A stretch of DNA of 64,000 nucleotides from Acidobacteriaceae bacterium (GCA_003131585.1 PKVW01000027.1:16549-80548); one strand, 5' to 3'. Positions 10,853 to 34,131 are shown, counted from the first letter of the stretch. Program-made: numbers and translations. The notes: a model not told the origin generated them from the letters alone.

Positions 10853-11716
10853 ATGCTGAAAAGGGGATTCAAGCACCTTTCGCGCGTCAGCGACGTATTT
10901 TTTCGCAAGCTCAGAATCGAGCGGGACATCACAATCTTTCCCAATGACGCGTTTCTTACCTCCTATCCGCGATCGGGCAATACATGGACGCGCTTCCTGA
11001 TTGGCAATCTGGTTCATCAGAACGAGGCGGTCACCTTCCTTAGCGTCGAACGGTTAGTTCCCGACATGTACAAGCATTCGGACCGCACGCTGCGCAACCT
11101 TCCGCGGCCGCGCATCTTGAAGAGCCATGAATGCTTCGATCCCCGATACAGGAAGGTCATCTACATCGTGCGCGACCCGCGAGATGTCGCGGTGTCCAAC
11201 TATCACTGGGAACTCAAGTTGCGATCCGTAAGGGAAGGGCATGCAATCGACGATTTCGTGCGGCGCTGGATGTCGCCGCAATTCTGGCCCCGCATCGGCT
11301 CCTGGGGTGATCACGTAGGCAGTTGGTTAGGCACCCGGCAGGGGCACGAGGGTTTCCTGCTGTTGCGCTATGAAGATCTGAAAGAAAACCCGCAGCGTGA
11401 GCTGGCGCGGGTCGCGGAGTTCCTGGGAATCTCGGCCACACGGGAGCGTATAACCCGGGCTGTCGAGTTGAGTTCCGCCGAAAACATGCGAAAGCTGGAA
11501 AGCGAGGAGAGTGGAAAATGGGTGGCGACCACGCTCACGCGCCAGGACAAGCCCTTTGTCCGCAACGCCATCTCTGGCGGTTGGAAAACTGTACTGCCGG
11601 AAAAAACCGTCGCATACATCGAAACGCATTGGGGCCACCTGATGCAAGATCTTGGGTACGAATTAGCGACGCCAGTTCTCAACCCTGCCGCAGCAGCCTT
11701 CCACCAGAAGAAGTAA
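10853..11716 (+). CDS. PAPS-dependent sulfotransferase
   Basis: 5'-PSB-like loop YPRSGNTWTRF and 3'-PB-like IYIVRDPRDVAVS. Strong paralog of 27588-28427, with shared blocks PRPRI(L/V)KSHECFDPRY, FLLLRYEDL and RQDKPFVRNA.SGGWK. Confidence 0.85.
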   Translation: MLKRGFKHLSRVSDVFFRKLRIERDITIFPNDAFLTSYPRSGNTWTRFLIGNLVHQNEAVTFLSVERLVPDMYKHSDRTLRNLPRPRILKSHECFDPRYRKVIYIVRDPRDVAVSNYHWELKLRSVREGHAIDDFVRRWMSPQFWPRIGSWGDHVGSWLGTRQGHEGFLLLRYEDLKENPQRELARVAEFLGISATRERITRAVELSSAENMRKLESEESGKWVATTLTRQDKPFVRNAISGGWKTVLPEKTVAYIETHWGHLMQDLGYELATPVLNPAAAAFHQKK

Positions 11717-11734: not shown

Positions 11735-12856
11735 TTAGAAGTTGCGGGGCAATCCGTCGCCATCCGCGCGGGTGAAGTGGATCCGAGACTGGGTCTCCGC
11801 AAACGGTTGCAGCAGAGCGCTCAACTTCTTCCCGGCGGCAAAAATGAAGTTAGACGGCGAGTGCAAGAAGCCGGCATGCTCAAGAGCGCGAGCCCACAGA
11901 CGATGGCTCTGATTGGAGACGATCAGATCCACTCCGTTATCCACTAGGGCTGCCGAAGCCGCCTGCATTACTGGCAAGGCGTCGTCCGGCGAAGCCCAGC
12001 AATCCACAATCGAACCCACGCGCATGGCGCCGTATTTTTCGTCCTTGCGGCGCTCTCCTACCACCGCCCACCCAATATCCCGCCCACTCCGGCGCACTCG
12101 CAGGCGGGTAAAATGTGTGTCGCTTGCGGGGTAGAGCGTGCGCAGGGTTTGACAATCCCGCACTGCCGTCATCGCATAGTGATTCTTCGCTTGCTCCCAC
12201 AGCGGATCGACCCAATCCGAAAAATCCTCGATTTTCTCCACCGTAAACGGTGTGAGTTTCGGGGCGCGCAGCTTTCGCAGACCCTGGATCGTCTTCACTC
12301 CAGCCCAACCCGTCCCTGTGAAGGCGGCCAGATTCAGCAGCAACCTGCGGGAGGGAGACGTGTGCAGGGCCTGCATTTCCTTGAAGAAACGGTTGGGGCG
12401 CGCAACATGGAAATAGAAAGGAACCAGAAAGTGGGCCCAGCCCAGGCGTGCCAGCATCTTCGGCAGGGGGCGGTCATAGCCACCCATGCCGAGGCAGTAG
12501 AGCAGCGGGGACCGGTTCATAGCATCTTTCAGCAACATGCTTCCCACTGCCGCATAAGACTTGTTGACAATACCCTCCGAAAGCGGATGGTGATAGTAGG
12601 CAACAGTGCGTGTGATGCCGTCTGCGAAGAAGAAGTCTTGTTGTTTCAGGGCATAGCCGCCGCGGACGACGCCATTCTCCAGGGCGACGAAATACCGCTG
12701 ATACAGTTTGGCTCCCTCGGCAGGGGGTAGCCAGCGCGGTTGAGCGAAGCGAAAAAATATGAGGTCGAGTTCCGCGCCACCGGATTGCAGCCGTCGATTG
12801 AATTCCTGCACCGCCGGCTGGTGCTCTTCACGATATGGCTGGATGACGATAGGCAT
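11735..12856 (-). CDS. Putative GNAT-type acyltransferase (function uncertain)
   Basis: 373-aa ORF that ends the long minus-strand operon, 41 nt downstream of the ACP gene. The N-terminus IQPYREEHQPAVQEFNRRL and GVVRGGYALK resemble GNAT motifs. The assignment is weak. Confidence 0.45.
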   Translation of the reverse strand: MPIVIQPYREEHQPAVQEFNRRLQSGGAELDLIFFRFAQPRWLPPAEGAKLYQRYFVALENGVVRGGYALKQQDFFFADGITRTVAYYHHPLSEGIVNKSYAAVGSMLLKDAMNRSPLLYCLGMGGYDRPLPKMLARLGWAHFLVPFYFHVARPNRFFKEMQALHTSPSRRLLLNLAAFTGTGWAGVKTIQGLRKLRAPKLTPFTVEKIEDFSDWVDPLWEQAKNHYAMTAVRDCQTLRTLYPASDTHFTRLRVRRSGRDIGWAVVGERRKDEKYGAMRVGSIVDCWASPDDALPVMQAASAALVDNGVDLIVSNQSHRLWARALEHAGFLHSPSNFIFAAGKKLSALLQPFAETQSRIHFTRADGDGLPRNF

Positions 12857-12897
12857 GGCAACCGGCGGGCAAGTTGCGAAAGATTGACGGGTCGTGG

Positions 12898-13149
12898 CTA
12901 GCGCGAAGCTTTCTGTAGTTTGGTCTCGACCAGCCTGGCAGCTTCGCCAACGTTTCGCATTTGCTCCATTTCTTCCGGAGACAACTGAAGGCCAAATTTT
13001 TCTTCCAGCGCAAGCACAAAGTTCAAGTGCTGAGTGGAATCCCAGGCTTCGATCATTTCGGGCGAAGACTCAGCCACGATTCGATCCACAGGAACACCGA
13101 AAAGATCGGACGCTATGCTTCGCACCTGGTCCAGAATGGATGACGTCAA
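12898..13149 (-). CDS. Acyl carrier protein (stand-alone, 83 aa)
   Basis: TTG 13149 overlaps the FkbH stop (TTGA). Phosphopantetheine-site-like EAWDSTQHLNFVLALEEKFG, with the Ser at about residue 38. The 170-aa ORF-track version (to 13410) is an in-frame extension lying inside the FkbH gene. Confidence 0.75.
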   Translation of the reverse strand: MTSSILDQVRSIASDLFGVPVDRIVAESSPEMIEAWDSTQHLNFVLALEEKFGLQLSPEEMEQMRNVGEAARLVETKLQKASR

Positions 13150-15038
13150 TTGTGCTCTCCCTCGGCAGTCTTCAACCGGATCCACGCCGGAGTGGCGATT
13201 GTATGATGCCGCAAGTCCAAGGTCCAAACCGAGCCGTCGCGATTCTCCTCGAGAAGTTGAAAGCCATGCCGGGCATAAAAGTCGCGCGCGGGGGCATTCT
13301 TCCTGGTGGGCGAGAAACGTCCGGCGAGACGCTGGCGGCCGCGAGCCACGGCGCCCTGAGCGACATGCGAGAGAAGTGCGGTTTCCACGGTTCTGCCAAT
13401 GACGCGGCAACTGAGCAGGAAGGTTTCAATCTCGCAGGTTTCGGCCTGGTCGCGGGTAATGGCCACGCCAACCAAACCGTGGTCCCCAAACCGGTCCCGC
13501 ACCTTGATGGAGAGGACTTGCCATCCAGGACGAGCGGCCATGTCCGCGATCTGTTGCTCGGTGTGGCGCTGGGTGGTCAGATTGAATTGATTCGTCTTTT
13601 GCGTGAGTTGCGCAACCCGGGCCAGCGTCGCCGGTGACACCGGGAGGACTTCCGCCTCCTGCTCGAGGTAACGAAAGAAGTCCTCCTTGCTTTGGAAGGC
13701 CTGTTCCGTCTGTGAGCGCTTCCGCCGCACCGCATAGAGGGTGGTACGCTGCGAATCTTCGCTGGAAAGCGAAAGGCGTTCGAATACCGGGCAATCTCGA
13801 ACCGCGGCAGCGTAGGCCTGCGGATCTTCGGGCAGATCGACGATCGTGACCTCTGGGAGGGCACTGCGAACTTGTTGCCGCTCTACCGGGTTGTCGTCGA
13901 GAAAAGCGAGGGCCTCCATTCCGACGTTCAATTCGGCGGCGATTTCGCGCAGATTCTGCGCTTTGTCGTTCCAATCGATGCGCACGGCTGCGAAATGCTT
14001 CGGCGTTAGCAACATTCCCGGGTGATTCTCCAGCGCTTCCATCGCATCTTCAAGATTATTCTTGCTGCAGATGGCCAGCAGAATTCCTCGCCGCGCCAGA
14101 TCCAACATGGCCCGCTGCAAATTTTGATACGCCGCGCCGGGGTACTCCGGGCCGAGTTTGATTCCGGTCATGCCATCTTCACCGATCACGCCTCCCCACA
14201 GCGTATTGTCGAGGTCGGTTACGAGCACCTTGGCAGTCTTGCCGGCAAGAGGAACCAGAAAGCGCAACCATTCGCGAGCGAGGTAAACGAGGTGGTCCGC
14301 GGCAATGGGCATTCTGGCAATCAGCCATTTTCGTTCGTCATGCCAGTGCAAGCGGCCATAGCGGGCGACGAGTCCATCGTAATCGAGCGCGTAAACACCG
14401 CAATGTTCACTCGCGATCTGCCTGAGTTCCTGGTTGATCTGCTGGATCGCGGCGGATTGACCTTTATTTTCCTGCGCATCAAGAAGTCCCATGCCCGGAC
14501 GCGCGGGGAGTTCGAGGGAATGCACCACCAGCGCGGCTGAACTGCGTTCCCGAAATGCCCGGACCCACTGGCGGAAGCTGTTGGAGACGCGCCGCACTAC
14601 CGCAGGGACCGCTTCCAGCGCGAGGTCCGGATACTCGTGCCACAGGTCGGGCGCGAGGTCCGCTGTCCTCGCCGCAAGAATTACGGCGTCGGGGGCAAAA
14701 CGGTAAAGGGAACTGTCCGGGTCGAGGATTTCTTGCGCGTAGGCGTTAAAGTCGCCGAGTTGGACGGTCAAATCGATTCCATGTACAAAGGCATCGGCCC
14801 TGAGCAACGGAAGTACCGGCTCCACGGTGAAGGATCGTAAAATTGCGAGGCGATAGCAGACCAGAGGGAGTTTGCCACGTAGTTGTTCGTAGCGAGACAC
14901 CAGGAAGGCTGCGGCGCTGGCGCTCGCTTCGTTGCGCCAGAGTTCGGCGAGGCGCAGAGAAGCCAACTCCTCCGACCCAGCCGAGATCAGACGGTCAGCT
15001 TCGCTCCGCAGGTCCAAACCGCTAGGCTCCGAGATCAT
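13146..15038 (-). CDS. FkbH-like HAD-IIIC phosphatase/acyl-loading protein
   Basis: 630 aa. HAD-IIIC motif I VLVTDLDNTLWGGVIGEDG, motif II ICSKNN, and a C-terminal FkbH-type region with FLLSCRVIGR followed by a GNAT-like end (ARDFYARHGF). ATGA overlap with the upstream VOC gene. Confidence 0.85.
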   Translation of the reverse strand: MISEPSGLDLRSEADRLISAGSEELASLRLAELWRNEASASAAAFLVSRYEQLRGKLPLVCYRLAILRSFTVEPVLPLLRADAFVHGIDLTVQLGDFNAYAQEILDPDSSLYRFAPDAVILAARTADLAPDLWHEYPDLALEAVPAVVRRVSNSFRQWVRAFRERSSAALVVHSLELPARPGMGLLDAQENKGQSAAIQQINQELRQIASEHCGVYALDYDGLVARYGRLHWHDERKWLIARMPIAADHLVYLAREWLRFLVPLAGKTAKVLVTDLDNTLWGGVIGEDGMTGIKLGPEYPGAAYQNLQRAMLDLARRGILLAICSKNNLEDAMEALENHPGMLLTPKHFAAVRIDWNDKAQNLREIAAELNVGMEALAFLDDNPVERQQVRSALPEVTIVDLPEDPQAYAAAVRDCPVFERLSLSSEDSQRTTLYAVRRKRSQTEQAFQSKEDFFRYLEQEAEVLPVSPATLARVAQLTQKTNQFNLTTQRHTEQQIADMAARPGWQVLSIKVRDRFGDHGLVGVAITRDQAETCEIETFLLSCRVIGRTVETALLSHVAQGAVARGRQRLAGRFSPTRKNAPARDFYARHGFQLLEENRDGSVWTLDLRHHTIATPAWIRLKTAEGEHN

Positions 15039-15490
15039 TGCTCAGCGGACCTTCCTTGGCGCTCCAGATATTCCAGAAGGAGCTTGTTCTTGGTGTAGAC
15101 CCAGGCGATGCGGCGCCCTCCAAAGGCTACGGCAGGAAGCGGCGGCCTAACTACAAGTCCGCCTTGAGCGCGGCTCAATGCCAGTTGGTCTTCTAGATGG
15201 TCGATCTCATAGCATAAGTGGTGCAGGCCGCCACCGCGCTTCAAGAATGGGATGACCGGTGAATTCTCTCCCGCCGGTTCCACCAGTTCCAGCAGGGGAT
15301 TTGCGGTATGCCTGCCGCGCAGAAAAGTCACCCGGACTGCTTGATTGGGATCATGAAAGATTGTTCCATCCCACTCAGCCTGCAGCGAGTCGAGAAATCC
15401 CTGTACGGAGTTCTGGATGGAAGCGACCACGAAGCCTATGTGATGAAACGAGCCTTGTGGAAGGGCGATTGCACCCGTGGACGATTCCAT
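15035..15490 (-). CDS. VOC (glyoxalase / methylmalonyl-CoA-epimerase-like) family protein
   Basis: 151 aa. HHIGFVV metal-ligand motif near the N-terminus and a second half with LHHLCYEI. Translationally coupled to FkbH. Confidence 0.7.
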   Translation of the reverse strand: MESSTGAIALPQGSFHHIGFVVASIQNSVQGFLDSLQAEWDGTIFHDPNQAVRVTFLRGRHTANPLLELVEPAGENSPVIPFLKRGGGLHHLCYEIDHLEDQLALSRAQGGLVVRPPLPAVAFGGRRIAWVYTKNKLLLEYLERQGRSAEQ

Positions 15491-17062: not shown

Positions 17063-18154
17063 TCAGTCCATGTCGCAGGTTGGGTCGGGGAGTTCCAGAG
17101 CGGCGAGATTGGCGAGACGGCCCACCGGGGTATTCAATTTGAGCCAAAGCTTGGTACTAAGAAAGTGCGGATAGACCGACGCGATACACTTCCACCGAAG
17201 CGCGACTCGCCGCTGTTCGGTGTCCAGGGTCAGCGGATAGCCGAATTCCTGAAGGCTCGGTCCGATGAGGGCTTCGAGCGCCGCCACCTGCCGATGAGAT
17301 AGGTTTTCTTTCCAGCGATTGACCGGGTTTTGCGTTTCTTTTCCGTCGCTCCGGAACGAGGAATTGGATTCGCGGAGCCGTCCTAAACCTGTTCTCTGGA
17401 TACGATCGAAGTCCAGGTCATGATCGAGAAAGTCTCCCAGCCGAGCCAAAGCGGGACGAGGCTGGGTCACGAGTTCTTCGTAGTGGATTTCAATGTAGTC
17501 GCTGGGAATCTGGCGGCCGTATTGCCGGCCCTTGTGCACCATCCAATCCCAATAAAGCGCCGTCTCCAACAAGCCGCGCGATTGCCGGCTCCAGGGGAAG
17601 GGCCGGAATTCCCCCATCTTCATGAGCGACAGGGCAACGTCACGTCCGTCCCGGATGATGTGCACGAACAGCGCATCCGGTATGTCCCTCTTGATTCGAG
17701 GCACGTGGAGGACACTGTCGGGATCGTAAACCGCCCATCTTTGTACGCCCTGGCTCTGTGCGATTTCGTCCATGACGATACGCATGAAGTCGCCCCCGTT
17801 GCGGCATTCCGCCAGCAATTTGGCGGAGAGTTGCCCTGCCTCCACTCCGGCGCGCGCGAATCCCTTGCTCTTCATCCATGTGCCGACGATCTTTTCCCGG
17901 TTACGAGGGTTCTCGAGAGAGCCGAAACGAGGTATCAGGATTTTGTAGATGGGGAGATAGCCACGATAGACGGCAAAATCGCCCGCGGACAGCAACGTGT
18001 CGTAAAGAAGATTCGTCCCGGAGCGATGGCAGCCCATTACGAAGACCGGGCGCCGCCTCCGCTCAGTGTCCGCAGGATTCTTGCTGCCTTGTGCGGAGGC
18101 GCCGCTCTCAGCGGTTCCAGTCATGAGCTTAATGCTTGAAGACGATTGTAGCAT
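17063..18154 (-). CDS. Sulfotransferase family protein (second type)
   Basis: VFVMGCHRSGTNLLYDTL (P-loop-like 5'-PSB) and VHIIRDGRDVALS (3'-PB-like). 363 aa with no signal peptide. Confidence 0.75.
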   Translation of the reverse strand: MLQSSSSIKLMTGTAESGASAQGSKNPADTERRRRPVFVMGCHRSGTNLLYDTLLSAGDFAVYRGYLPIYKILIPRFGSLENPRNREKIVGTWMKSKGFARAGVEAGQLSAKLLAECRNGGDFMRIVMDEIAQSQGVQRWAVYDPDSVLHVPRIKRDIPDALFVHIIRDGRDVALSLMKMGEFRPFPWSRQSRGLLETALYWDWMVHKGRQYGRQIPSDYIEIHYEELVTQPRPALARLGDFLDHDLDFDRIQRTGLGRLRESNSSFRSDGKETQNPVNRWKENLSHRQVAALEALIGPSLQEFGYPLTLDTEQRRVALRWKCIASVYPHFLSTKLWLKLNTPVGRLANLAALELPDPTCDMD

Positions 18155-19005: not shown

Positions 19006-20052
19006 TCAAAAGCCGGTAGTCTTGCCAGGCTCTTTCAACGCCGGTTCTACCGAGCTGCCTTCCGCCGCAGGGACGGGAAGCAGACTGAATACAATCCCAA
19101 TCCCGTGTGGTTCCAGTTCAATTTCCTGTTCGCATGTCTTGCGCTCAAGATCATAGAGCGCGACGTGAGAGGGCTTGTGCCGAGGGGAATGGCCATTTGT
19201 AACCCATGCTACATTCTCGATGAACTTGGTAGGACGTACTCGAGTGAACCCTACCCATAGCCGGCGTTCGTCCAGCGGAAGCACGCCGCGGCACCAGCCC
19301 AGAACCTGTCCGGACTGTCCGCTCATCTGGTTCAGGTCGACTGTCTCTTCGACCTGCAGGGTCTTCCGGTTGGCGATGACGACATGGCCGTCGACCGTTG
19401 TGAAATAGATTCTATCTCCGAAAATGTAGCCATCGTGAGGGCTCTGCACCGCGATATCGATGCGTGGACCGGGGAGGGTCAGGCAGATGGCGTCGCGTTG
19501 CTGGAAGCGCGTGACCCAGACTTCCTGGTCGAGCTCAAACACGTGATTCGGGTGCGACCGGTGAGGCTTGGTCGTGGGGACCTTGCGATAGTCTGTCTGC
19601 CGCGAGAATCTTGCCCAGGGATCTTCCCCTAGCACATTCCATTCCCTGACCAGGCTTCCCGCCGTCGTGACCTCCACCACCATATCGAGTCCGGTCACTA
19701 CGACCAGAATCGTCCCGCGCTGCGTGGGACTAACGTGATGGAGATCGTTAAAGCAGGGCAGGGAAATGTAGTGCTGGAGGCGAAAGCCCGGAAGCTCGTA
19801 GACCAATACTTCGGTGGAGGTGCAGGTGTAAAGCTTATTTCCCTGGATCGTGGCCGACTTGAACAGAAAGGCCGGCAACTCATCCGCACAGACTTCAGGC
19901 GGGGAAACGTACTCCACACACACACGGGACTGATTCTTTTTCGGATCGAGTTCGATCAGGAGGGCTTGTTCGCTCGATTGCCATTCTTCGAGCTTGCGGA
20001 AAACCGTGCTTCTGAGCCGTCCTCCAACCACGTAGAAGCTATTTATCGACAA
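19006..20052 (-). CDS. Conserved hypothetical cytoplasmic protein (possibly beta-propeller fold)
   Basis: 348-aa ORF with no signal peptide, tightly packed between the cysQ-like and deacetylase genes. I recognise no motif with confidence. Confidence 0.55.
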   Translation of the reverse strand: MSINSFYVVGGRLRSTVFRKLEEWQSSEQALLIELDPKKNQSRVCVEYVSPPEVCADELPAFLFKSATIQGNKLYTCTSTEVLVYELPGFRLQHYISLPCFNDLHHVSPTQRGTILVVVTGLDMVVEVTTAGSLVREWNVLGEDPWARFSRQTDYRKVPTTKPHRSHPNHVFELDQEVWVTRFQQRDAICLTLPGPRIDIAVQSPHDGYIFGDRIYFTTVDGHVVIANRKTLQVEETVDLNQMSGQSGQVLGWCRGVLPLDERRLWVGFTRVRPTKFIENVAWVTNGHSPRHKPSHVALYDLERKTCEQEIELEPHGIGIVFSLLPVPAAEGSSVEPALKEPGKTTGF

Positions 20053-20142: not shown

Positions 20143-20964
20143 TCAACCACGCTGGGCAGACTTCAGAATCGCAGGTTCGATGTGCTGGCCAATCGCGGCG
20201 AGAAGTTCTTCTCGCAAGTATGGCCCGGAGGCCAGCAGGCCAGAAAGTAACGGATTCTTATTGTTGCAACGTAAGGGCGTTTTCTCGAGAGTGCTGACAA
20301 AGCCTCCAGCACTCAGCACCAAAGCCGCTCCCGCGGCAACATCCCATTCGTTCTTGGGAGTCAGGGTAAAGGTTACGTCTGCCAGTCCGGCCGAGACCAG
20401 GGCAAGCTTGTAGGCCACCGAGCCCATGGGGCGGATCTTAAAGGCAGCATTCTCAAATGGTTTCCATTCACCTCGCTTGACCTCGCTACGGCTGGCGAGA
20501 ACCAAGGCGCCGTCCAGACTCGTGCGCGGGCTGGGCTGAGAAGGTTTGCCGTTGTAGGTAACGCCGGATTCGATTGATCCCAGAAAGGCTTCGTTGGTCG
20601 CTGGATTGTAGATTCCGCCAGCCACGGGACGGCCGTTCTCGACGAACCCAATCGAAGCACAAAACTCCGGAATCCCCTTGACGAATTCGCGGGTGCCGTC
20701 GAGCGGATCGACAACCCAAACGCGCGAATGCTGCAAGCGGATGGGGTCGTCCACGCTCTCTTCCGAAAGCCAGCCTTCTCCATCGCGCAGCAGTTCCTTG
20801 CGCAGAACGGCGTCGAGGGCGCGGTCCGCTTCCGTCACGGGATCGTGTCCCGCTTTGTATTCTGTGTCAATCGCTCCAGGCGTGAAGCGGGCAAAGACCG
20901 TACGAGAGGCTTCCAACGCTGAGTGAATCCTTTCCAGTATTTCAGCGTAAGAGTGTGAGGGCAT
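20143..20964 (-). CDS. cysQ: 3'(2'),5'-bisphosphate nucleotidase (CysQ / inositol-monophosphatase family)
   Basis: WLSEESVDD ... VWVVDPLDGTREF ... GSVAYKLALVSAG. The DGT(R/K)EF variant and the sulfation context favour CysQ over SuhB. Confidence 0.75.
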   Translation of the reverse strand: MPSHSYAEILERIHSALEASRTVFARFTPGAIDTEYKAGHDPVTEADRALDAVLRKELLRDGEGWLSEESVDDPIRLQHSRVWVVDPLDGTREFVKGIPEFCASIGFVENGRPVAGGIYNPATNEAFLGSIESGVTYNGKPSQPSPRTSLDGALVLASRSEVKRGEWKPFENAAFKIRPMGSVAYKLALVSAGLADVTFTLTPKNEWDVAAGAALVLSAGGFVSTLEKTPLRCNNKNPLLSGLLASGPYLREELLAAIGQHIEPAILKSAQRG

Positions 20965-21008
20965 ATTTCCTCAATCTTCCTGTTGGTGTGACGATCAACC
21001 TGTGATGA

Positions 21009-21785
21009 TCACGCCATCAACATGCGCGCGCCCGTGGCTAGCAGCACCGCGCAAAGTATGCGGCGCAGCCAGGGAACGGGAACCCGCGTACTCAAGTAGG
21101 AACCGAGCAGCCCGCCTGGAACCGAGCCGATCAAAAGCGCGCCGACGAGGTGAACGTCAACATTGTGCATCCGAAAATGGAGCAGACTGGTGACGCCGGT
21201 GAGAATCAGGGCGTGCACAATGTCGGTGCCCACCATGACCTTCGGTTGGAAGCTGTAGAACAGCAAAAGCATCATCATGACGATGCTGCCTGAGCCGACG
21301 GAGGTGATGCCTACCAGGAAGCCCGCCACCAAGCCGATGACGGACATTCCGAGAAACGACTTCGTGGTTGGAGGCCGCACGGCCGCCCCAGCGGCACGGT
21401 CCTCGATTTTCTTCTGAAAGAACAAGAAAGTCGGAATGCAAATCAGCAGAAATCCAACCGCAACCGTGATGAAGTGGTTGACGCCATTGCCGTAGACATT
21501 CCGCAGGTGGATCAGGAAACTTACGCCCAGATAGGATCCCGGAGCACTGCCGGCGGCCAGCGCCAAGACTACTTTGCGCCGGACCGTGCCCTTGCGCAGG
21601 TGAACGGCGCTGGCGCCGATCTTGGTGAGAAAGTTGAAAAGCGCGTCCGAGCCCACGGCTCGAAGGGGGGGCACGCCCAAACCGAAAATGAGGATCGGGA
21701 GCAGCAGAACGCCGCCCCCGACTCCCGTCATTCCAATGAGGGTCCCGACTCCAAAACCAATCAGGCTCTTGATCAGCAGATCCAT
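21009..21785 (-). CDS. TauE/SafE (DUF81) family anion permease
   Basis: 258-aa polytopic membrane protein. N-terminal GFGVGTLIGMTGVGGGVLLLPIL, with a repeat of the same motif type in the second half (GFLVGITSVGSGSIVMMML). Confidence 0.8.
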   Translation of the reverse strand: MDLLIKSLIGFGVGTLIGMTGVGGGVLLLPILIFGLGVPPLRAVGSDALFNFLTKIGASAVHLRKGTVRRKVVLALAAGSAPGSYLGVSFLIHLRNVYGNGVNHFITVAVGFLLICIPTFLFFQKKIEDRAAGAAVRPPTTKSFLGMSVIGLVAGFLVGITSVGSGSIVMMMLLLFYSFQPKVMVGTDIVHALILTGVTSLLHFRMHNVDVHLVGALLIGSVPGGLLGSYLSTRVPVPWLRRILCAVLLATGARMLMA

Positions 21786-21836
21786 GACCGTACCGGCTTC
21801 AGCCTCTCGTCATTTTCTGGCCTTATCAGAGCGCGT

Positions 21837-23582
21837 TTACAGCGACTCCGCAGCCGTTCCGATGAAGCCTTCCCTCTCCAGGTGCAGGATAATCTCCTGC
21901 GCCGCCTCTTCGGAGGACAAGTCACCGGTATTGATGGTGACTTCGGCATCGGCCGGAACTTCATAAGGATCCGAGATGCCCGTGAATTCTTTGAGAATTC
22001 CCGCGCGCGCCTTGGCGTACAGGCCTTTGCGATCGCGTTGTTCGCAGACTTCCACGGAGGTGGCGATGTGCACCAGAATGAATCCTCCGTAGGGCTCAAT
22101 CGTCTGCCGGACATGTTTGCGGGTCGCATCATAAGGCGCGATGGGAGCGCAAATGGCGATACCGCCATTCTTGGTGATTTCCGACGCAACGTAGCCGATG
22201 CGCCGGATGTTAATGTCGCGGTGCTCCTTGGAAAAGCCGAGTTCGGAAGACAGATTTTTGCGGACCAAATCGCCATCCAGCAAGGTGACGGGACGTCCAC
22301 CGGTTTCGAGAAACTTCGTCAGCAATACGTTGGCAATGGTCGACTTGCCGGAACCGGAAAGTCCGGTGAAGAAGATGGTCACGCCTTGCTTGTGACGGGG
22401 CGGGAAACTGCGGCGCAATTCAGCCACGACTTCGGGATAGGTGAACCAGGCGGGAATCTCGCGGCCTTCGTTCAGGCGTTGGCGAAGTTCAGTGCCGGAG
22501 ATATTCAGCACACGATCCCCCTTCTTGACTTCGTCGTCGGGAACGTATTTGTCCTGATCCTCGAGGTACACCATCATGTTGAAGGGCACCATGGTGACGC
22601 CGATGTCGGCTTCGTGTTTTTTGAACACTTCCTGGGCTTCGTAGGGCCCGTAGAAGGGTTTGCCGTCGGTGTCCTTGCCGGGACCGGCGTGATCGCGGCC
22701 CACGATGAAGTGGGTGCAGCCGTGGTTCTTGCGAATCAGCGCGTGCCAAATGGCCTCGCGCGGTCCACCCATGCGCATGGCGAGCGGCAGTAGGGAAAGT
22801 TTTACCGTTCCCTGAGGGAACTTCGGCAGCAGCAACTGGTAGCAGCGAACCCGGGTAAAGTAGTCGACATCCCCCGGCTTGGTCATGCCCACGCTGGGGT
22901 TGATGAGCAGGTTGGCTTCGACCTGCTTGGCGGCGCGGAACGCGAGTTCGACGTGGGCGCGGTGCATGGGGTTGCGAGTCTGGAAGGCGACCACACGGCG
23001 CCAGCCCGCCCGTGCGAACTCGGCGCGCACCTCGGCCGGAGTCAAACGCAGGTTGCGAAAATCATAGTGGGACGGGATCTGAGTTCCCTCTAGCTTGCCT
23101 CCGACGTACCAGGGATTCGCCTTGTTGATGGCGTAATCGGCGCCCGGATGGGCAGCGCTGGTGCTGGCGAAAACGGCCTTGGCCTCCGCCTTACGGTCTG
23201 GTTGCCAAACTTCTTCCACATGCAACACCGCCAACATCACGCCTTCCGGATCGCGCAGCGCGATTTTGCTCGTGCCGGGGATTAGCTTCCTGGCAAATTC
23301 CTCAGTCACATCCAGCGTGATAGGCATGGGCCAGAGCGTCCCGCTGGCCAGTCGCATGTTGTGGCATACGCCATCGTAGTCGGCGCGTGTCATGAAGCCC
23401 CGCAGTGGAGAAAACCCGCCGGTAAGCAGCAACTCAAGATCACAAAGCTGGCGGCCGGTCAGGTCCCATGAAGGCCACTCTTTCGAATGGGATTTCAATT
23501 CGGCAATTCTCTCGGGTTGAGCGATGAGTTGAACAAGTTCTCCGCCGTGGGGCGGAATGAGATGGCTGGTCGAAGCGGTCAA
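21837..23582 (-). CDS. sat/cysC: Bifunctional sulfate adenylyltransferase / adenylylsulfate kinase (PAPS synthase)
   Basis: ATP-sulfurylase motifs VAFQTRNPMHRAHVEL and FIVGRDHAG. The C-terminal APS-kinase domain has an intact P-loop FFTGLSGSGKSTIA and LLDGDLVR. Confidence 0.92.
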   Translation of the reverse strand: MTASTSHLIPPHGGELVQLIAQPERIAELKSHSKEWPSWDLTGRQLCDLELLLTGGFSPLRGFMTRADYDGVCHNMRLASGTLWPMPITLDVTEEFARKLIPGTSKIALRDPEGVMLAVLHVEEVWQPDRKAEAKAVFASTSAAHPGADYAINKANPWYVGGKLEGTQIPSHYDFRNLRLTPAEVRAEFARAGWRRVVAFQTRNPMHRAHVELAFRAAKQVEANLLINPSVGMTKPGDVDYFTRVRCYQLLLPKFPQGTVKLSLLPLAMRMGGPREAIWHALIRKNHGCTHFIVGRDHAGPGKDTDGKPFYGPYEAQEVFKKHEADIGVTMVPFNMMVYLEDQDKYVPDDEVKKGDRVLNISGTELRQRLNEGREIPAWFTYPEVVAELRRSFPPRHKQGVTIFFTGLSGSGKSTIANVLLTKFLETGGRPVTLLDGDLVRKNLSSELGFSKEHRDINIRRIGYVASEITKNGGIAICAPIAPYDATRKHVRQTIEPYGGFILVHIATSVEVCEQRDRKGLYAKARAGILKEFTGISDPYEVPADAEVTINTGDLSSEEAAQEIILHLEREGFIGTAAESL

Positions 23583-26371: not shown

Positions 26372-27547
26372 ATGAAGATGGCTTCGGACCAGAACCTCAC
26401 ACTAAGCGTTCACGAGAGTCTGGAGAGTCTGGAGCTCTTGCGGCCAGAGTGGGATACGCTGCTGGGAGAGTACCCATACTCCACCATATTTTCCACCTAT
26501 GAGTGGCTCGTGCCCTGGTGGCGAGCCTTCGGGGGCAAGGAGCGGCTAATGGTACTTGCCTTTCGCGACGCCGCTTCGGCGCTCGTGGGTCTGGCGCCGA
26601 TGGCTTTGACCACCCGCGGAGCGTTTCCGGCTCCGTTGCGCTCGTTGCGGCTGATGGGCGACGGCAGCCACGACTCCGACAACCTGGACCTACCGGTGCG
26701 ACCCGGCTGGGAGACGGCGTTTAGCCAGGCCCTGCTCGGCTGGATGCAGCAGAACGCAGAGCTTTGGGACGTTTGCGAGTTGAACACTCTTCCTTCCCAC
26801 TCTGCGTTGGGGGGAAAGCTCTTGGACGATCTGAGACAGCGCAAGTGGAAGTGTTTCGCTTCGACGAGGCCTCAGACCGTCGTGGAGTTGGCCGAGAGCT
26901 GGGAGTCCTACCTTAGGAGAATTTCAAGCAAGGAGCGGGGCAAGATTGGGCTGCGAACCCGGCGCCTGGAAAAGAAGTACGAGGTGCGAATTCGCAGGTG
27001 TGAAGAAGACGCTGAGATCGACTGTCTCCTGCGAGCCCTCTACGAACTGCACGGCAAGCACTGGCAACTGCGAGGTCTGCCGGGAACTCTGCATTCGTCG
27101 GGCCGCCGCCAGTTTTATGAGGAACTGGCCCGGCTCCTGTTGGCGCGCCGCCGGCTGGAGTTCTGGGTGCTCGAACTGAAGGGAAAAGTGGTGGCCGCAC
27201 AGTTTGGATTAAGGCACGGGACTACTGTCTTCTCGCTACAGGAAGGATTTGACCCGGACTATGCCGCCGACAGCGTGGGCTACGTTCTGCGCAGCCAAGT
27301 GCTGAAGCAACTGATCGCCGACGGAGTTCGCCGCTACGACTTCCTGGGCGGTACCGACGAATCGAAGATGCGCTGGGGCGCTGAGGTACAGAGCTATCTC
27401 AATCTCCACTTCGCGCGTCCACTCAGCCGGGGAAGTCTGCACCTTACTCTCAAGAACAAGAGTGCGCAGACCAAGGATTGGTTGCGACATCATTTGCCGG
27501 CGGGAATGTGGGGAAGCCTCAAAGGGGCAGTGGGGAAGGGGCGTTAG
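26372..27547 (+). CDS. CelD/BcsL-like GNAT-fold acyltransferase (Acetyltransf_6-like)
   Basis: LELLRPEWDTLL ... STIFSTYEWLVPWWRAFG ... FWVLELKGKVVAAQFGLRHG ... RRYDFLGGTDESKMRWGA, a layout typical of CelD-like proteins. Confidence 0.65.
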   Translation: MKMASDQNLTLSVHESLESLELLRPEWDTLLGEYPYSTIFSTYEWLVPWWRAFGGKERLMVLAFRDAASALVGLAPMALTTRGAFPAPLRSLRLMGDGSHDSDNLDLPVRPGWETAFSQALLGWMQQNAELWDVCELNTLPSHSALGGKLLDDLRQRKWKCFASTRPQTVVELAESWESYLRRISSKERGKIGLRTRRLEKKYEVRIRRCEEDAEIDCLLRALYELHGKHWQLRGLPGTLHSSGRRQFYEELARLLLARRRLEFWVLELKGKVVAAQFGLRHGTTVFSLQEGFDPDYAADSVGYVLRSQVLKQLIADGVRRYDFLGGTDESKMRWGAEVQSYLNLHFARPLSRGSLHLTLKNKSAQTKDWLRHHLPAGMWGSLKGAVGKGR

Positions 27548-27587: not shown

Positions 27588-28427
27588 TCAGCGGGTCACT
27601 GCTTCGTTTGCGGTCACCGGTTCGTAGCCCACGGAGCGCATCACGTCTCCCCATGCCGACTCGATCTGGGCGACACACCGCTCCGGCACGGTGGATTTCC
27701 AGCCGCCCGATGCCGCGTTGCGAACGAACGGCTTATCCTGCCGAGTCTTTCTGGTCTCCTTCCATTGGCGCGATTGTTCTTTTTCGAGCTGGCGCATGCG
27801 ATCCGCCGAGCTCAGGGCCACAGCACGTGCGATGCGCTCGAGGTTGGTATCGAGGCCAAGAAACGAGGCGATCTTCGTACTCTCCTTCTCGGTGTTGGCC
27901 AGCAGGTCTTCGTAGCGCAGCAGCAGGAAGCTCTTCTGGCCGCCGCGCGTGGCGGTCCAACTGACGACGTGATCTCGCCAGGAGCCAGTCTTGGGCTCGA
28001 ACTCGGATGCCATGAAACGCGGGAGGAATTCCTCCAAGCTGCACTCGTCGGAAATGACTCGGCGCTTAAGCTGAAATTCGTAATAGGAGATCAAGACGTC
28101 GCGGGGATCGCGCACGATGTATATGATTTTTTTGTACCGGGGGTCAAAGCATTCGTGGCTTTTGACGATACGGGGCCGCGGGAAAGCGCGCAGACTCCGG
28201 TCTGTGACGTCGTAAATTTCGGGGATGCGCGACTCCAGTCGAGCGAAATCAACCGGATCATCCGGATTCATCAGGTTGCAGACCAGGAAGCGGGTCCAAG
28301 TATTTCCAGATCTGGGGAAGGAAACCAGGAACGTGTCGTCGGGATAGACCGTGAGACCTCTCGCCGCGGGTTGCCGCTTCGTGACCACCCGGGCATAGGC
28401 CACCAGCTGTTTCTTCAGGTTCGACAT
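27588..28427 (-). CDS. PAPS-dependent sulfotransferase (paralog of 10853-11716)
   Basis: FPRSGNTWTRF, IYIVRDPRDVLIS, FLLLRYEDL, RQDKPFVRNAASGGWK. Confidence 0.85.
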   Translation of the reverse strand: MSNLKKQLVAYARVVTKRQPAARGLTVYPDDTFLVSFPRSGNTWTRFLVCNLMNPDDPVDFARLESRIPEIYDVTDRSLRAFPRPRIVKSHECFDPRYKKIIYIVRDPRDVLISYYEFQLKRRVISDECSLEEFLPRFMASEFEPKTGSWRDHVVSWTATRGGQKSFLLLRYEDLLANTEKESTKIASFLGLDTNLERIARAVALSSADRMRQLEKEQSRQWKETRKTRQDKPFVRNAASGGWKSTVPERCVAQIESAWGDVMRSVGYEPVTANEAVTR

Positions 28428-31102: not shown

Positions 31103-31912
31103 ATGACTCTGAGTTACTCCAGAATTCTGGGCAGGAAAGCGTCGCGGGCGGCGCAGAATCTTATTTGTCCTCACTTGGGCTGGAATCAGGAGCGCTACGG
31201 AAACGTGCTTCATCAACACCTGCAACCTGGCGGGAATACTCGCTGGCTGGAGGCTGGCTGCGGCCACCGTATTCTTCCCAATGGTCTGGAGTCGATTGAG
31301 AAGTTGGCTGTCAAGCAAGCCAGATTCGTGGTCGGAATGGACATGGATTGGAGCAGTTTGCGCACCCACCGCAGCATAGGGCGGCGAGTAAAGGCCTCGA
31401 TGAGCGGGGTGCCGTTTGCCGACGAAAGCTTCGACCTTGTGGGTTGCAACATGGTGGCGGAGCATCTTGAGGATCCCGGCCAATGCTTGGCAGAATTGAC
31501 TCGGGTCCTGGCCCCGAACGGCGTTTTGCTCATCCACACGCCGAATATCAGGAATTACATGGTGTTCTTGAACCATGCCGTCTCGCGACTTCTTCCGCGG
31601 CACTGGATGGCGTCGTTCGTGCATTCCGCCGAACAACGCGCCCAAGAAGATGTTTTTCCCGCGCTCTATCGGATGAATTCCGCCGAGAAGCTCCGGCAGG
31701 CAGCTCGCGATCTGGGCTTGCAAATCGAATCGGAGGAATTCCTCACGGGACCACGGCCGTTCTTCGCTTTTTTTCTGCCCCTCGCATTGATCCAGTTGAT
31801 TATCTTGCGGCTGTTGGCGCTGCCTCGACTGAGCAAATTTCAGACCACCATCCTGGTAGTGATGCGCAAACCGGTCCATCCGGCCGTGATCGCTGCGCGA
31901 GCAGTTGCATAG
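31103..31912 (+). CDS. Class I SAM-dependent methyltransferase
   Basis: WLEAGCGHRIL (motif I variant), FADESFDLVGCNMVAEHLEDP, LAPNGVLLIHTPN. Confidence 0.8.
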   Translation: MTLSYSRILGRKASRAAQNLICPHLGWNQERYGNVLHQHLQPGGNTRWLEAGCGHRILPNGLESIEKLAVKQARFVVGMDMDWSSLRTHRSIGRRVKASMSGVPFADESFDLVGCNMVAEHLEDPGQCLAELTRVLAPNGVLLIHTPNIRNYMVFLNHAVSRLLPRHWMASFVHSAEQRAQEDVFPALYRMNSAEKLRQAARDLGLQIESEEFLTGPRPFFAFFLPLALIQLIILRLLALPRLSKFQTTILVVMRKPVHPAVIAARAVA

Positions 31913-31962
31913 GCCGCATCAGCCTGAGGGTGAATGTATCGCCGGGTAATGGTAATGGAGCT

Positions 31963-34131
31963 ATGCCCCGCGAATTCCGCTGTAGCTGTGAAACGAAAGA
32001 AACCATGAGCCTGCTCGAATGTCTGAAATGCAGTGAGAAGCTTGATTGTGGCCCGGAACAATGTGTCTGCCGCGGGTGCGGGACCACGTGGCCAGTGCGC
32101 GACGGAATTCCGCGTTTCTTTCAGGTGCCCGATCACTACTGGGGCGAAGTGGACCGCAATCAGGCTTTGGAACTCATTGAGGCGGCGCGGCAAGGGTCAT
32201 GGGTGGAAGCGGTGCGTGCCCGCTTTCCCGAGAAAGACAACATGATATTTGGTTTGCTCGATCTTCAACGCGCGTCCTGGGCACCTATGCTGGGGCTTGA
32301 CGAGCAATCTACCGTTCTGGACATCGGTTCCGGCTACGGTTGCATTACCCATTCCCTTTCTCGTTTTGCAGGAGAGGTCTATTCGGTTGAAGCTGTAACC
32401 GAGCGGATCGAGTTTACAAGGGAAAGATTGCGGCAGGAGCGGATCCTCAATGTGCATCTCGTTCAAGCATCGGCTACCGAGCTGCCACTCGCGGAGAACA
32501 GCTTTGACCTGGTGGTGGTGAATGGTGTCCTCGAATGGGTTGGAGAATGGGACCTTGCGGTCGATCCTCGCACTGTCCAGATCAATTTTCTAAAGAAGAT
32601 TTGCCGCCTGCTCAAGAATGACGGCGTTTTGCTGATTGGTATCGAAAACCGGATCGGGCTGGGCTTATTCCTGGGGAATAACGACCACTCGGGGATTCCG
32701 TACACTAGCCTCGTCCCCCGCGCGGTGGCGAGCTTTATGTTAAGGCACACTTCCAAACGCCACCACCGCACCCAATTGAACCCGCGAAAGCAGTATCGCA
32801 CCTACACGTATTCGGAGCGCGGATACCGCAAGCTGCTGGCGGAGGCTGGATTCGCGGCGGTGTCTTCCTACTGGGCTGACCCGGGCTACAACCAGCCCTA
32901 CCATCTCGTCCCGCTAGCGGCCGCAGGCTGGGTACGACAACACTTCGTGGAATTACTCGACCACCCCAGCCCTGCGCCTCGGCGGAGCTGGCGTCGCAGG
33001 TTGAAGAGAATCGCAATGCCCTTCGCTGACTCGTTCGTGGCGGATTTCGTGCTGCTGGCTTCGAAGCAGCCCGGCCGCAGAACCAAACTGCAAACATGGG
33101 TCGAAGAGCGCCTAGCGGAATCCAGCGGAAAACGTCGAGATCTCGCGGCGAACCCCCGATCAGTGACCTGGGCACTCCATACAGGACCGTTCAAAGAAAC
33201 GTCCATCGTCCGGCTCGGGGACGCGAGAACGGGTTCCGGCCTCGCCTATCTCAAGGTGTTCACTGGGAACCAAGAAGCCGGGGCGTGCTTTGAAAGAGAG
33301 GTTACGAACCGCGCGAAGGTACAAGAAAGCCTGAATGCTTCGGCTACTCCATTGGTGCGGGTCCCTCGCTTCTGCGGTACGTTGCGAATCCGCAATACGG
33401 CTTATTATCTAGAGTCAGCGTCGCAAGGAACCAAAATAAGCGACATCGTTCGCGAGTGGGGTTATTTTGACAACGCAGGAAGAGTCGAGCGGGATTTCTC
33501 TCAGATCTGCGACCGCATCATCGAGCTTACCTCGGTCCTGCAGAATATGTCGGGTGTGCCGACGATCAGTCCAACCTGGCGTGAGATTCCCCAAGAACTT
33601 CGGAGTCGTCCTGACCTGACTCGCGGGCTTGCTGAGAGACGATATTTTCAAGAGGCGTTTCCCGAGTCTCCTGCGACCTGGATTCAGCATGGAGATCTTT
33701 CGGTTGAGAATACTCATATCGACCGGACCACCGGAGGGTTCGAAGTATTCGACTGGAGCGACCTGGCCGGCGGTCTGCCGCCACTCTACGACTTCTTTCA
33801 ATTTTTCTATTCGACCGGGTATCTTGCGCCCGCGGAGGAAACCGTGAGGTTTGCATCCGAAGAAGACCGGTGGACTGCCAGCTTCAAGGCTGTATTCCTT
33901 TCGGAGTCAGCGTTTGGGCGAGTGACTCGACGTCTTATCCTGCAAGCCTGTGAACGACTGAATGTCTCGCCACAAAAGGCCCCGTCGCTTTTATTGGAGT
34001 TCCTGATCATCCGATGCAACTATTATCAGGCGCGATCCGCCGTGCAACATCGCGTGCACTTGCGCTTGCTCGAAGCAGGTATCGCGGCATTTGAGCGGCT
34101 GCAATCGGACTGGGGCAACCCAAATGGATAA
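31963..34131 (+). CDS. Fusion protein: zinc-ribbon + SAM methyltransferase + C-terminal APH/choline-kinase-like phosphotransferase domain
   Basis: ATG 31963 (alternative 32005) follows the upstream stop at 31912. The ORF-track start at 31483 lies inside the previous gene. Motifs: CLKC...CRGCG...DGIPRFF, VLDIGSGYGC, DLVVVNGVLEWV. The C-terminal catalytic-loop-like IQHGDLSVENTHI and FEVFDWSDL match the kinase-fold HGDxxxxN...D pattern. Confidence 0.7.
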   Translation: MPREFRCSCETKETMSLLECLKCSEKLDCGPEQCVCRGCGTTWPVRDGIPRFFQVPDHYWGEVDRNQALELIEAARQGSWVEAVRARFPEKDNMIFGLLDLQRASWAPMLGLDEQSTVLDIGSGYGCITHSLSRFAGEVYSVEAVTERIEFTRERLRQERILNVHLVQASATELPLAENSFDLVVVNGVLEWVGEWDLAVDPRTVQINFLKKICRLLKNDGVLLIGIENRIGLGLFLGNNDHSGIPYTSLVPRAVASFMLRHTSKRHHRTQLNPRKQYRTYTYSERGYRKLLAEAGFAAVSSYWADPGYNQPYHLVPLAAAGWVRQHFVELLDHPSPAPRRSWRRRLKRIAMPFADSFVADFVLLASKQPGRRTKLQTWVEERLAESSGKRRDLAANPRSVTWALHTGPFKETSIVRLGDARTGSGLAYLKVFTGNQEAGACFEREVTNRAKVQESLNASATPLVRVPRFCGTLRIRNTAYYLESASQGTKISDIVREWGYFDNAGRVERDFSQICDRIIELTSVLQNMSGVPTISPTWREIPQELRSRPDLTRGLAERRYFQEAFPESPATWIQHGDLSVENTHIDRTTGGFEVFDWSDLAGGLPPLYDFFQFFYSTGYLAPAEETVRFASEEDRWTASFKAVFLSESAFGRVTRRLILQACERLNVSPQKAPSLLLEFLIIRCNYYQARSAVQHRVHLRLLEAGIAAFERLQSDWGNPNG

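Follow-up and report, generated by a model that had tools for sequence, protein, structure and literature searches.

A VOC-FkbH-ACP-tandem-GNAT gene cassette in an acidobacterial glycan locus and its possible role as a carrier-bound glyceroyl donor

How are glyceroyl groups supplied to the microbial glycans that carry them? Glyceroyl and related C3 hydroxyacyl groups are known on several microbial glycans, and gellan bears L-glycerate esters. Pseudaminic acid occurs as a 5-N-(2,3-di-O-methylglyceroyl) amide in Campylobacter jejuni 11168 (PMC3068675; bioRxiv 10.64898/2026.04.20.719630) and as 7-N-glyceroyl pseudaminic acid in Tannerella forsythia, the genetic basis of the latter having been termed a "major challenge" (PMC5378307). 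The origin of such groups is now directly testable, and the question is raised here by a 64,000-nt stretch of DNA from a soil bacterium of the Acidobacteriaceae (GCA_003131585.1, PKVW01000027.1:16549-80548), referred to below as the window. Four consecutive minus-strand genes in it encode a vicinal oxygen chelate (VOC)-superfamily protein, an FkbH-like protein, an acyl carrier protein (ACP), and a protein with a predicted tandem GCN5-related N-acetyltransferase (GNAT) fold (Table 1). An earlier reading of the sequence (the original prediction) had regarded these genes as a cassette for carrier-protein-dependent acyl decoration of a glycan. We propose, with slightly better than even confidence, that they form a soluble cytoplasmic module which would provide a carrier-bound glyceroyl donor for the decoration of an exopolysaccharide (EPS).

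The positions of the four open reading frames (ORFs) and the 4-nt overlaps joining the first three of them proved to be as originally predicted. Direct reading of the DNA showed that the ATGA at 15035-15038 (...GAGCA-ATGA-TCTCGG) is common to the VOC stop and the FkbH start, and that the TTGA at 13146-13149 (...CACAA-TTGA-CGTCA) is common to the FkbH stop and the TTG start of the ACP gene, which has a Shine-Dalgarno-like GGGAG motif 8 nt on its 5' side. Family scans likewise upheld the VOC, FkbH-like, and ACP identities. The whole VOC-FkbH-ACP-373aa block is syntenic in all relatives examined. In a survey of 80 related loci from species-representative genomes of bacteria and archaea, extended by five metagenomic loci to 85, the gene immediately following FkbH in the same orientation encodes an ACP in about 62 of the 80, and an ACP homolog is present within the flank in 77 of the 85. 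Synteny in relatives and FkbH-ACP adjacency across phyla place the arrangement far beyond chance. A scan for promoters and terminators gave a yield not above that of shuffled sequence; a single -35/-10-like site at 16998-16970, 5' of a 471-aa gene preceding the cassette, is a hint at most.

Membership of the 630-aa protein in the FkbH family held on every feature examined. It scored 300.1 bits against TIGR01686 (cut-off 146.65) and 69.8 bits against TIGR01681, the model of the haloacid dehalogenase (HAD)-IIIC group (cut-off 35.75), and also matched FkbH_N; its three domains are an SGNH-like one at the N-terminus, a HAD-IIIC phosphatase, and a cysteine domain at the C-terminus. Residues 62-425, covering the SGNH-like and HAD parts, match PDB entry 3slr (BF1531, an uncharacterised protein of Bacteroides fragilis) with an E-value of 1.9e-47, and the C-terminal part gave only faint GNAT-like matches. 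Both motifs named in the original prediction, DLDNTLWGG and SCRVIGR, were found, and their key residues are invariant. In an alignment of 34 diverse relatives (33-54% identity), HAD motifs I-IV are kept, with D275, D277, S325, K359, D381, and D382 identical in 34/34 and T279 present as threonine in 32/34; S543-C544-R545 and T482-N483-Q484 are invariant as well. The family is very large, with 15,601 representatives at 50% clustering for E-values up to 1e-3 and 7,059 for values up to 1e-30.

In the published FkbH mechanism, 1,3-bisphosphoglycerate (1,3-BPG) is converted through phosphoglyceryl-S-enzyme and glyceryl-S-enzyme to glyceryl-ACP (PMC9057759; PMC7489565). Judging from the conserved residues, the window enzyme would react with 1,3-BPG to give a 3-phosphoglyceryl thioester on Cys544, putatively the cysteine bearing the acyl thioester; the HAD domain (Asp275/Asp277) would strip the phosphate, and D-glyceryl would move on to the thiol of the ACP, a course of reaction demonstrated for OzmB and enzymes related to it. 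The formation of glyceryl-S-ACP, which had also been claimed originally, is plausible by homology and by the conserved catalytic motifs, and we hold it to be quite likely.

Comparison with homologs from other contexts used annotated plasmid-borne sequences, which stood in for the C. jejuni, T. forsythia, OzmB, and FK520 FkbH sequences. Identity was 33% over 497 aa (E 3e-71) with the FkbH domain of a trans-acyltransferase polyketide synthase (PKS) encoded on a plasmid of Burkholderia sp. FERM BP-3421, a plasmid which we take to belong to the producer of a glycerate-primed polyketide; 27% over residues 266-626, with the same motifs, with a 359-aa short FkbH from a Bacillus thuringiensis nonribosomal peptide synthetase (NRPS)/PKS cluster; and 29-35% with the long FkbH proteins of FabH-FkbH-ACP-acyltransferase operons located beside PKS genes (Methylosinus, Pseudalkalibacillus). 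S543-C544-R545 aligns with the SCRV of both the PKS-embedded domain and the short NRPS/PKS-cluster protein. The role of the SGNH/GDSL-like N-domain (residues 1-260) was considered separately, and its activity as a hydrolase was rejected: Ser69, the equivalent of the nucleophile, is serine in only 18 of the 34 relatives, and none of the histidines in this domain is conserved among them, G184 and N202 of the Gly and Asn blocks being kept. Because Ser69 is unconserved and a conserved histidine is missing, the N-domain is probably not a hydrolase and would more probably serve as a non-hydrolytic scaffold or docking domain.

The carrier itself matched the PP-binding family with 25.9 bits (cut-off 20.8). 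Its phosphopantetheine attachment site is Ser38 within W36-D37-S38, three residues that are each conserved in at least 90% of 72 FkbH-linked ACPs, and a hidden Markov model of FkbH-linked ACPs found the cassette ACP as its sole match in the window. All AcpP fatty-acid equivalog cut-offs (65-146 bits) were missed, the best score being 36; as it scores below every one of them, the protein is a specialised carrier rather than a housekeeping AcpP. The original prediction had also pointed to a phosphopantetheinyl transferase (PPTase) encoded elsewhere in the window, and its Sfp-type domains were confirmed. This enzyme is the probable activator of the cassette ACP, which it would turn into the holo form at Ser38. 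In 11 unrelated loci, among them some of candidate phyla radiation (CPR) bacteria and archaea, the gene immediately preceding FkbH encodes an AcpS-type PPTase, which supports the need for a dedicated PPTase.

Once glyceryl-S-ACP is available, the VOC protein would work on its alpha carbon, the likeliest reaction being (2R) to (2S) inversion. The protein matches Glyoxalase_4 (E 5.9e-15) and aligns over residues 13-101 with human MCEE (3rmu/6qh4) and also with small glyoxalase-like structures. H17, E68, H91, E140, and E143 are each conserved in at least 90% of 25 FkbH-linked VOC proteins; H17, E68, and H91 lie inside the MCEE-aligned stretch and E140 beyond it, and these four are presumably the metal-ligand positions of VOC enzymes. 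Methylmalonyl-CoA epimerase (MMCE) inverts the alpha carbon of an acyl thioester, which makes C2 epimerisation (D to L) the most economical role for the VOC protein, and we put forward its function as a C2 epimerase of glyceryl-S-ACP tentatively, somewhat short of an even chance. A lactyl unit formed after VOC action, as entertained in the original prediction, had to be abandoned: neither the dehydratase nor the reductase that such a conversion requires is encoded in the cassette.

A VOC gene adjoins FkbH-ACP in about 22 of the 80 loci surveyed, including those of planctomycetes, delta-proteobacteria, and two Asgard metagenome-assembled genomes (MAGs), as well as on Sinorhizobium meliloti pSymB (32% identity, E 9e-16) and on a Rhodobacteraceae plasmid; it is missing from both tetronate operons examined. 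Loci that lack a VOC gene often have one for a short-chain dehydrogenase/reductase (SDR), and VOC and SDR neighbors are nearly mutually exclusive (22 and 24 loci, overlap 1, Fisher p = 0.002 with phylogeny ignored; L006-L085). This pattern hints that the ACP-bound unit is tailored by one or the other of two routes.

With regard to the fourth gene, the original prediction of a possible GNAT 41 nt downstream of the ACP gene stood in part: the spacer is 41 nt and the predicted fold agrees, and a sequence-level GNAT match was not obtained. The 373-aa ORF has no match in Pfam, NCBIfam, PHROGs, or, by phmmer, the PDB; a 30-sequence profile of its family also found no match in the PDB, and hhalign revealed no similarity to the Acetyltransf_6 (FemAB-like) protein of the locus. 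Its approximately 1,600 detectable homologs are all "hypothetical" and all without a Pfam domain. An AlphaFold2 (AF2) model built from 30 homologs reached a pLDDT of 88 and a pTM of 0.86, and Foldseek matched it in the PDB, with probability 1.00 and E-values of 3e-10 to 7e-9, to N-myristoyltransferases, to 2hv2 (an Enterococcus faecalis protein of unknown function), to 2wpw (a clavulanate-pathway tandem GNAT), and to 7wx6 (VipF). According to the model, the protein is a divergent tandem GNAT with two GNAT-like lobes, belonging to a family that Pfam lacks.

All Terriglobales loci examined have the gene next after that of the ACP, at identities as low as 62-65%, and it recurs in a planctomycete locus (L083) ordered tGNAT-FkbH-ACP-VOC, followed by AsnB (asparagine-synthase-like) and a GT2-family glycosyltransferase (GT). 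This independent linkage is the best evidence for the tandem GNAT as the transferase of the module, a role that we consider probable on balance. It would take glyceroyl off the ACP and attach it to a sugar within a sulfated EPS. No hydrophobic segment suggesting a membrane span was found in the 373-aa protein, and since the proposed transferase is soluble, the transfer is probably cytoplasmic. As to the acceptor and the timing of the transfer, we infer a nucleotide-sugar or lipid-linked intermediate, the acylated group probably being an amine bared by a NodB-type deacetylase, or else a hydroxyl.

The surroundings of the cassette agree with the original placement inside a glycan operon. Family scans of the window ORFs identified positions 1 to ~40,400 as one large glycan locus, in which the cassette forms the end of a 12-gene co-directional array reaching from a Wzx-like flippase gene (25439) to 11735 and also holding genes for the synthesis of 3'-phosphoadenosine 5'-phosphosulfate (PAPS), a deacetylase, and a sulfotransferase. 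The locus further encodes two asparagine-synthase-like amidotransferases, a double GT4, a GT2, a heparinase II/III-like protein, a UDP-glucose/GDP-mannose dehydrogenase-family enzyme, a UDP-GlcNAc 2-epimerase, two NodB-type deacetylases, two FemAB-like Acetyltransf_6 proteins, methyltransferases, and a full sulfation kit composed of ATP sulfurylase/APS (adenosine 5'-phosphosulfate) kinase, a CysQ-like phosphatase of 3'-phosphoadenosine 5'-phosphate (PAP), a TauE exporter, and three sulfotransferases. The sulfation kit, together with the heparinase II/III-like protein, the UDP-GlcNAc 2-epimerase, and the UDP-sugar dehydrogenase, suggests a sulfated glycosaminoglycan-like EPS in an acidobacterium. 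Genes for PKS, NRPS, and fatty acid synthase (FAS), whose absence had been stated originally, were not found among the long window ORFs scanned, and neither were those for an adenylating enzyme or a membrane-bound O-acyltransferase (MBOAT); family scans of the window ORFs also revealed no FabH/ketosynthase (KS), thioesterase, or exporter for a small-molecule product. We regard a glycan as the likely destination of the acyl group. The base composition of the window is uniform, and outside the glycan locus it encodes regulators, an efflux system, and a pentose-phosphate operon. Protein identical to that of the window is found on metagenomic contigs, and the nearest named relatives are Terriglobales/Candidatus Sulfotelmatobacter MAGs.

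Table 1. Coordinates of the cassette and of other features of the window
Feature	Length	Position	Strand	Basis
VOC-superfamily protein, methylmalonyl-CoA-epimerase-like	151 aa	15035-15490	-	Glyoxalase_4
FkbH-like protein, three domains	630 aa	13146-15038	-	TIGR01686, TIGR01681, FkbH_N
Acyl carrier protein, TTG start inside a longer ORF	83 aa	12898-13149	-	PP-binding
Predicted tandem-GNAT-fold protein, without Pfam model	373 aa	11735-12856	-	AF2 model and Foldseek
Sfp-type 4'-phosphopantetheinyl transferase	271 aa	36754-37569	-	ACPS and AASDHPPT_N domains
NodB-type polysaccharide deacetylase	263 aa	18192-18983	-	Polysacc_deac_1, E 5.4e-28
Sulfation kit		10853-11716, 17063-18154, 20143-23582, 27588-28427
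Predicted secreted beta-propeller protein	471 aa	15535-16950	-	Signal-peptide-like N-terminus; AF2 and Foldseek
FemAB-like/Acetyltransf_6 protein	348 aa	9605-10651	+	Acetyltransf_6, E 1.3e-12; weak TIGR03019 match
Second FemAB-like Acetyltransf_6 protein		26372-27547

Several neighbors bear on the proposed module to different degrees. The 263-aa deacetylase is encoded on the same strand as the cassette and upstream of it in the co-directional array, and its homolog is found directly after FkbH-ACP in Tunturiibacter (L061) and related loci and upstream in L092. By this co-location it is a candidate for baring the free amine that the cassette would re-acylate. The 471-aa gene sits 44 nt upstream of the VOC gene and is kept there only in the closest Terriglobales relatives, and whether its product belongs to the cassette is uncertain. 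Family and PDB searches gave no sequence match for it; its AF2 model (pLDDT 64) had as top Foldseek match the PL22 oligogalacturonate lyases (3c5m, 3pe7; TM 0.45-0.53), a resemblance which we treat as tentative. The 348-aa Acetyltransf_6 gene is convergent to the cassette and accompanies it in all Terriglobales loci examined, and only there.

Some further ORFs in or near the glycan locus deserve mention in their own right. Those at 19006-20052 (-), 37466-38212 (+), 45021-45752 (+), and 47184-47891 (+) have no Pfam match; the first, of 348 aa, stands between the CysQ-like gene and the deacetylase gene in the array and is gene-called in relatives too. An 882-aa ORF at 31483-34131 (+) combines a class I S-adenosylmethionine (SAM)-dependent methyltransferase (~270-390) with a weak aminoglycoside-phosphotransferase-like kinase region (702-775), an unusual fusion for which the gene is located within the glycan locus.

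Beyond the Acidobacteriaceae window, the surveyed loci point in the same direction. A glycan-type gene lies within 5 kb in at least 54 of the 80 related loci; none of them contains a ketosynthase, and weak FabH-like matches were seen in 4. A hexapeptide acyltransferase is encoded around FkbH-ACP in 27 loci, mostly directly upstream, and an AAC(3)-like N-acetyltransferase in the vicinity in 7; other neighbors in other lineages include GT4, GT2, an NAD-dependent sugar epimerase/dehydratase, a DegT aminotransferase, and Wzx. An MBOAT and an unannotated protein of about 360-410 aa accompany FkbH-ACP in a Dlt-like layout in three loci: S. meliloti pSymB (L087, 3351-9230), with the order VOC, MBOAT, 409-aa protein, ACP, FkbH; the Rhodobacteraceae plasmid (L089, 6491-12278), with the order ACP, FkbH, MBOAT, 358-aa protein, VOC, hexapeptide acyltransferase; and a Nitrosopelagicus single-amplified genome (SAG; L071, 8388-9875), in which the MBOAT gene adjoins FkbH. 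The Rhodobacteraceae plasmid, which is unrelated to the window, also carries PAPS synthase, sulfotransferase, and AT3 acyltransferase genes in the flank. In the cultured Tunturiibacter empetritectus M8UP27 (L061, 9145-15194), the order is hexapeptide acyltransferase, FkbH, ACP, NodB deacetylase, GT4, GT4, next to a Wzx-like flippase gene, and this strain is a tractable organism for the system. The donor pair is thus the fixed part of these loci, whereas the transferase and the tailoring enzyme change; the window cassette exemplifies a modular system that is very widespread among the glycan loci of bacteria and archaea.

Two side observations concern individual loci. The 409-aa S. meliloti protein is annotated as a 'TonB-dependent receptor' and has no Pfam match. 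ACPs are generally held to be rare in archaea; FkbH-ACP was found on contigs assigned to Promethearchaeota, Thorarchaeota, Nanoarchaeota, Woesearchaeota, and marine Thaumarchaeota (L042, L052, L058, L060, L069, L071, and L084), with an AcpS-type PPTase gene directly upstream in L042, L052, L058, L060, and L069.

Among characterised systems, the closest in logic are those in which FkbH enzymes load glyceryl units for natural products. OzmB/OzmE (oxazolomycin), FkbH (FK520), and the methoxymalonyl-/hydroxymalonyl-ACP pathways have the same HAD-IIIC and C-terminal cysteine domains and a stand-alone dedicated ACP, and the motifs DxDxT, SKN, K, DD, TNQ(F/L)N, and SCRV are common to the natural-product enzymes and the window protein. 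OzmB has two domains in 366 aa, to which the window protein adds an SGNH-like one of ~260 aa at the N-terminus; unlike the methoxymalonyl-type pathways, the window has no adjacent acyl-ACP dehydrogenase, O-methyltransferase, or PKS genes, and the output would go to the tandem GNAT. The chemistry of the tetronate glycerate-utilisation operon (FabH-like, FkbH-like, ACP, acyltransferase, dehydratase) has been described (PMC7489565). Such operons (e.g., Mad7/Mad8) encode the same long three-domain FkbH with an overlapping ACP gene immediately downstream (L088, L090); in contrast to the window, with its VOC and tandem GNAT, they lack a VOC and carry genes for a PKS, a FabH-like condensing enzyme, and an E2-like acyltransferase. 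Genes that mark tetronate or methoxymalonyl membership were not found in the window, genuine examples for comparison being L088, L090, and L091.

Three other systems share parts of the proposed logic. In D-alanylation of teichoic acids by DltABCD, a carrier protein acts with an MBOAT; as in the cassette, a small carrier loaded in the cytoplasm donates an acyl group to a cell-surface glycopolymer, but Dlt relies on an adenylating loader and an MBOAT, whereas the window has an FkbH loader and no MBOAT among its ORFs. In nodulation factor synthesis, the NodB deacetylase bares a sugar amine, which is then N-acylated with an acyl group from a dedicated ACP (NodB/NodA/NodF). The window and Tunturiibacter L061 similarly pair NodB-type deacetylases with FkbH-ACP, the link in the window being one of co-location; NodF, however, carries a fatty acyl chain from NodE, and NodA is not a tandem GNAT. 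Judged by its domains and gene content, the cassette would work like the polyketide FkbH/ACP glyceryl-loading systems; it falls outside the tetronate, methoxymalonyl-ACP, and Dlt groups, as the remaining genes that define these are lacking. For suomilide and dysinosin, methylation and sulfonation of FkbH-derived glycerate were proposed as later steps (PMC8609519). That module is NRPS-embedded and makes a peptide, whereas the window cassette is flanked by sulfotransferase genes, with PAPS synthesis and methyltransferase genes in the locus; sulfation of the glyceroyl group here would be speculation by analogy.

A parallel in a glycan context is the flagellin glycosylation island of C. jejuni NCTC 11168, where, as in the window, a VOC gene stands next to an FkbH-domain gene in a glycan-modification locus; we take COG0346 to be the VOC/glyoxalase family, and the genes of CAL35413 and CAL35414 to be located beside cj1301/cj1302. 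We know of no tandem GNAT in this island. The FkbH-domain gene cj1302 lies in the glycosylation island beside cj1301 (PMC7099621), CJ1301 was assigned to COG0346 (PMC1943423), and the C. jejuni genes include those for putative acyl carrier proteins (CAL35413) and a methyltransferase (CAL35414) (PMC5554493). The acceptor there is a nonulosonic acid on flagellin and not an EPS, and the likeness to the window is one of gene descriptions and co-location. In the literature searched, a functional study of cj1298-cj1304 was not found, and nothing relevant to a gellan glyceryl-transferase gene appeared; searches combining FkbH/HAD-IIIC with polysaccharide, O-antigen, capsule, or glyceroyl returned natural-product papers and one passing mention of cj1302, in agreement with the original view that FkbH-like genes of polysaccharide loci are essentially uncharacterised.

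Several observations weigh against the proposal of a glyceroyl donor module. The PPTase gene is 21 kb from the cassette, and in relatives none was found within 10 kb of it. No characterised acyltransferase resembles the tandem GNAT in sequence, and the Foldseek TM-scores of its model are only ~0.45-0.54. For the source organism, a metagenome-derived Terriglobales/Candidatus Sulfotelmatobacter relative, no EPS structure is known; the link between glyceroyl and FkbH in C. jejuni is one of co-location only; and the literature searched contained no experiment tying a glycan-locus FkbH-like protein to glyceroylation. Other points of this kind concern the acyl group. The FkbH-like protein shares 27-35% identity with homologs from PKS, tetronate, and NRPS/PKS contexts, and pairwise identity does not separate the glycan-context from the tetronate-context proteins, so that substrate specificity is unreadable from sequence. 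VOC enzymes catalyse many reaction types, and the cassette protein reached 47.3 bits against the methylmalonyl-CoA epimerase model TIGR03081, missing the cut-off of 114.95, for which reason it is filed as MMCE-like only. These features, together with the almost exclusive replacement of VOC by SDR elsewhere, as if the ACP-bound unit were tailored variously, would fit the same carrier logic applied to a non-glyceroyl group, with another acyl phosphate accepted by the FkbH-like protein or another C3 unit (a 2-oxo-aldehyde-type or hydroxypyruvoyl isomer, or lactyl) made by the VOC protein. We find this unlikely: the catalytic residues of the phosphatase and cysteine domains are all invariant, the conservation of a phosphatase domain would make no sense unless the acyl donor, like 1,3-BPG, is phosphorylated, the dehydratase and reductase that lactyl requires are missing, and all characterised family members use 1,3-BPG (PMC9057759; PMC7489565; PMC8609519).

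If glyceryl-ACP is formed as proposed, the transferase could still be another protein, since the two FemAB-like Acetyltransf_6 proteins of the locus are alternative candidates and likewise count against the assignment made here; the tandem GNAT would then do other work, e.g., aminoacyl-tRNA- or acetyl-CoA-dependent modification. Tandem-GNAT folds include aminoacyl-tRNA users such as Fem transferases, the structural neighbors of the 373-aa protein are acyl-CoA users such as N-myristoyltransferases, and the constant company of the 348-aa Acetyltransf_6 gene in Terriglobales speaks for this option. That gene, however, is convergent and not co-transcribed with the cassette, and it is missing from planctomycete L083, where the tandem GNAT is still found in the FkbH-ACP-VOC operon; the slot beside FkbH-ACP, moreover, always holds some acyltransferase in other lineages. 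Transfer by an Acetyltransf_6 protein thus seems to us a rather poor prospect, a shade weaker than that of a non-glyceroyl group. Natural-product pathways are where FkbH-ACP pairs are best known, tetronate-type operons include long three-domain FkbH forms, and GNAT-fold enzymes using acyl-ACP for small N-acyl products include acyl-homoserine lactone (AHL) synthases and N-acyl amino acid synthases, all of which would suit a cassette that is incidental to the glycan locus and whose product is a lipid or a small molecule, for example a signal, an N-glyceroyl amino acid, or something butenolide-like. This is very improbable: the window lacks FabH/KS, PKS, NRPS, thioesterase, and an exporter for such a product, synteny with sulfotransferase, deacetylase, flippase, and GT genes is stable over 62-100% identity, and unrelated phyla, too, set FkbH-ACP amid GT, DegT, Wzx, and NAD-epimerase genes.

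Should the proposed glyceroyl donor module operate as outlined, a glycolytic intermediate would be caught on a dedicated carrier, its stereochemistry perhaps edited, and the resulting group handed to a lineage-specific transferase. In its widest form, which we consider unlikely as a whole, FkbH-ACP would be a general, unrecognised source of glyceroyl on bacterial and archaeal glycans, a portable donor with interchangeable transferases (tandem GNAT, hexapeptide, AAC(3)-like, or Dlt-like MBOAT) and an optional stereo-inverting VOC or redox SDR; in the window, the sulfotransferases that flank the cassette would go on to O-sulfate an epimerised L-glyceroyl amide and give a sulfoglyceroyl-decorated glycosaminoglycan-like EPS. 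The module is very common, reaching archaea and candidate phyla. A correct proposal could lead to the re-annotation of many genes now called "HAD-IIIC phosphatase" in loci for capsule, O-antigen, EPS, and protein glycosylation; it would also define a new tandem-GNAT acyltransferase family that Pfam lacks and supply tools for engineering acylated polysaccharides.

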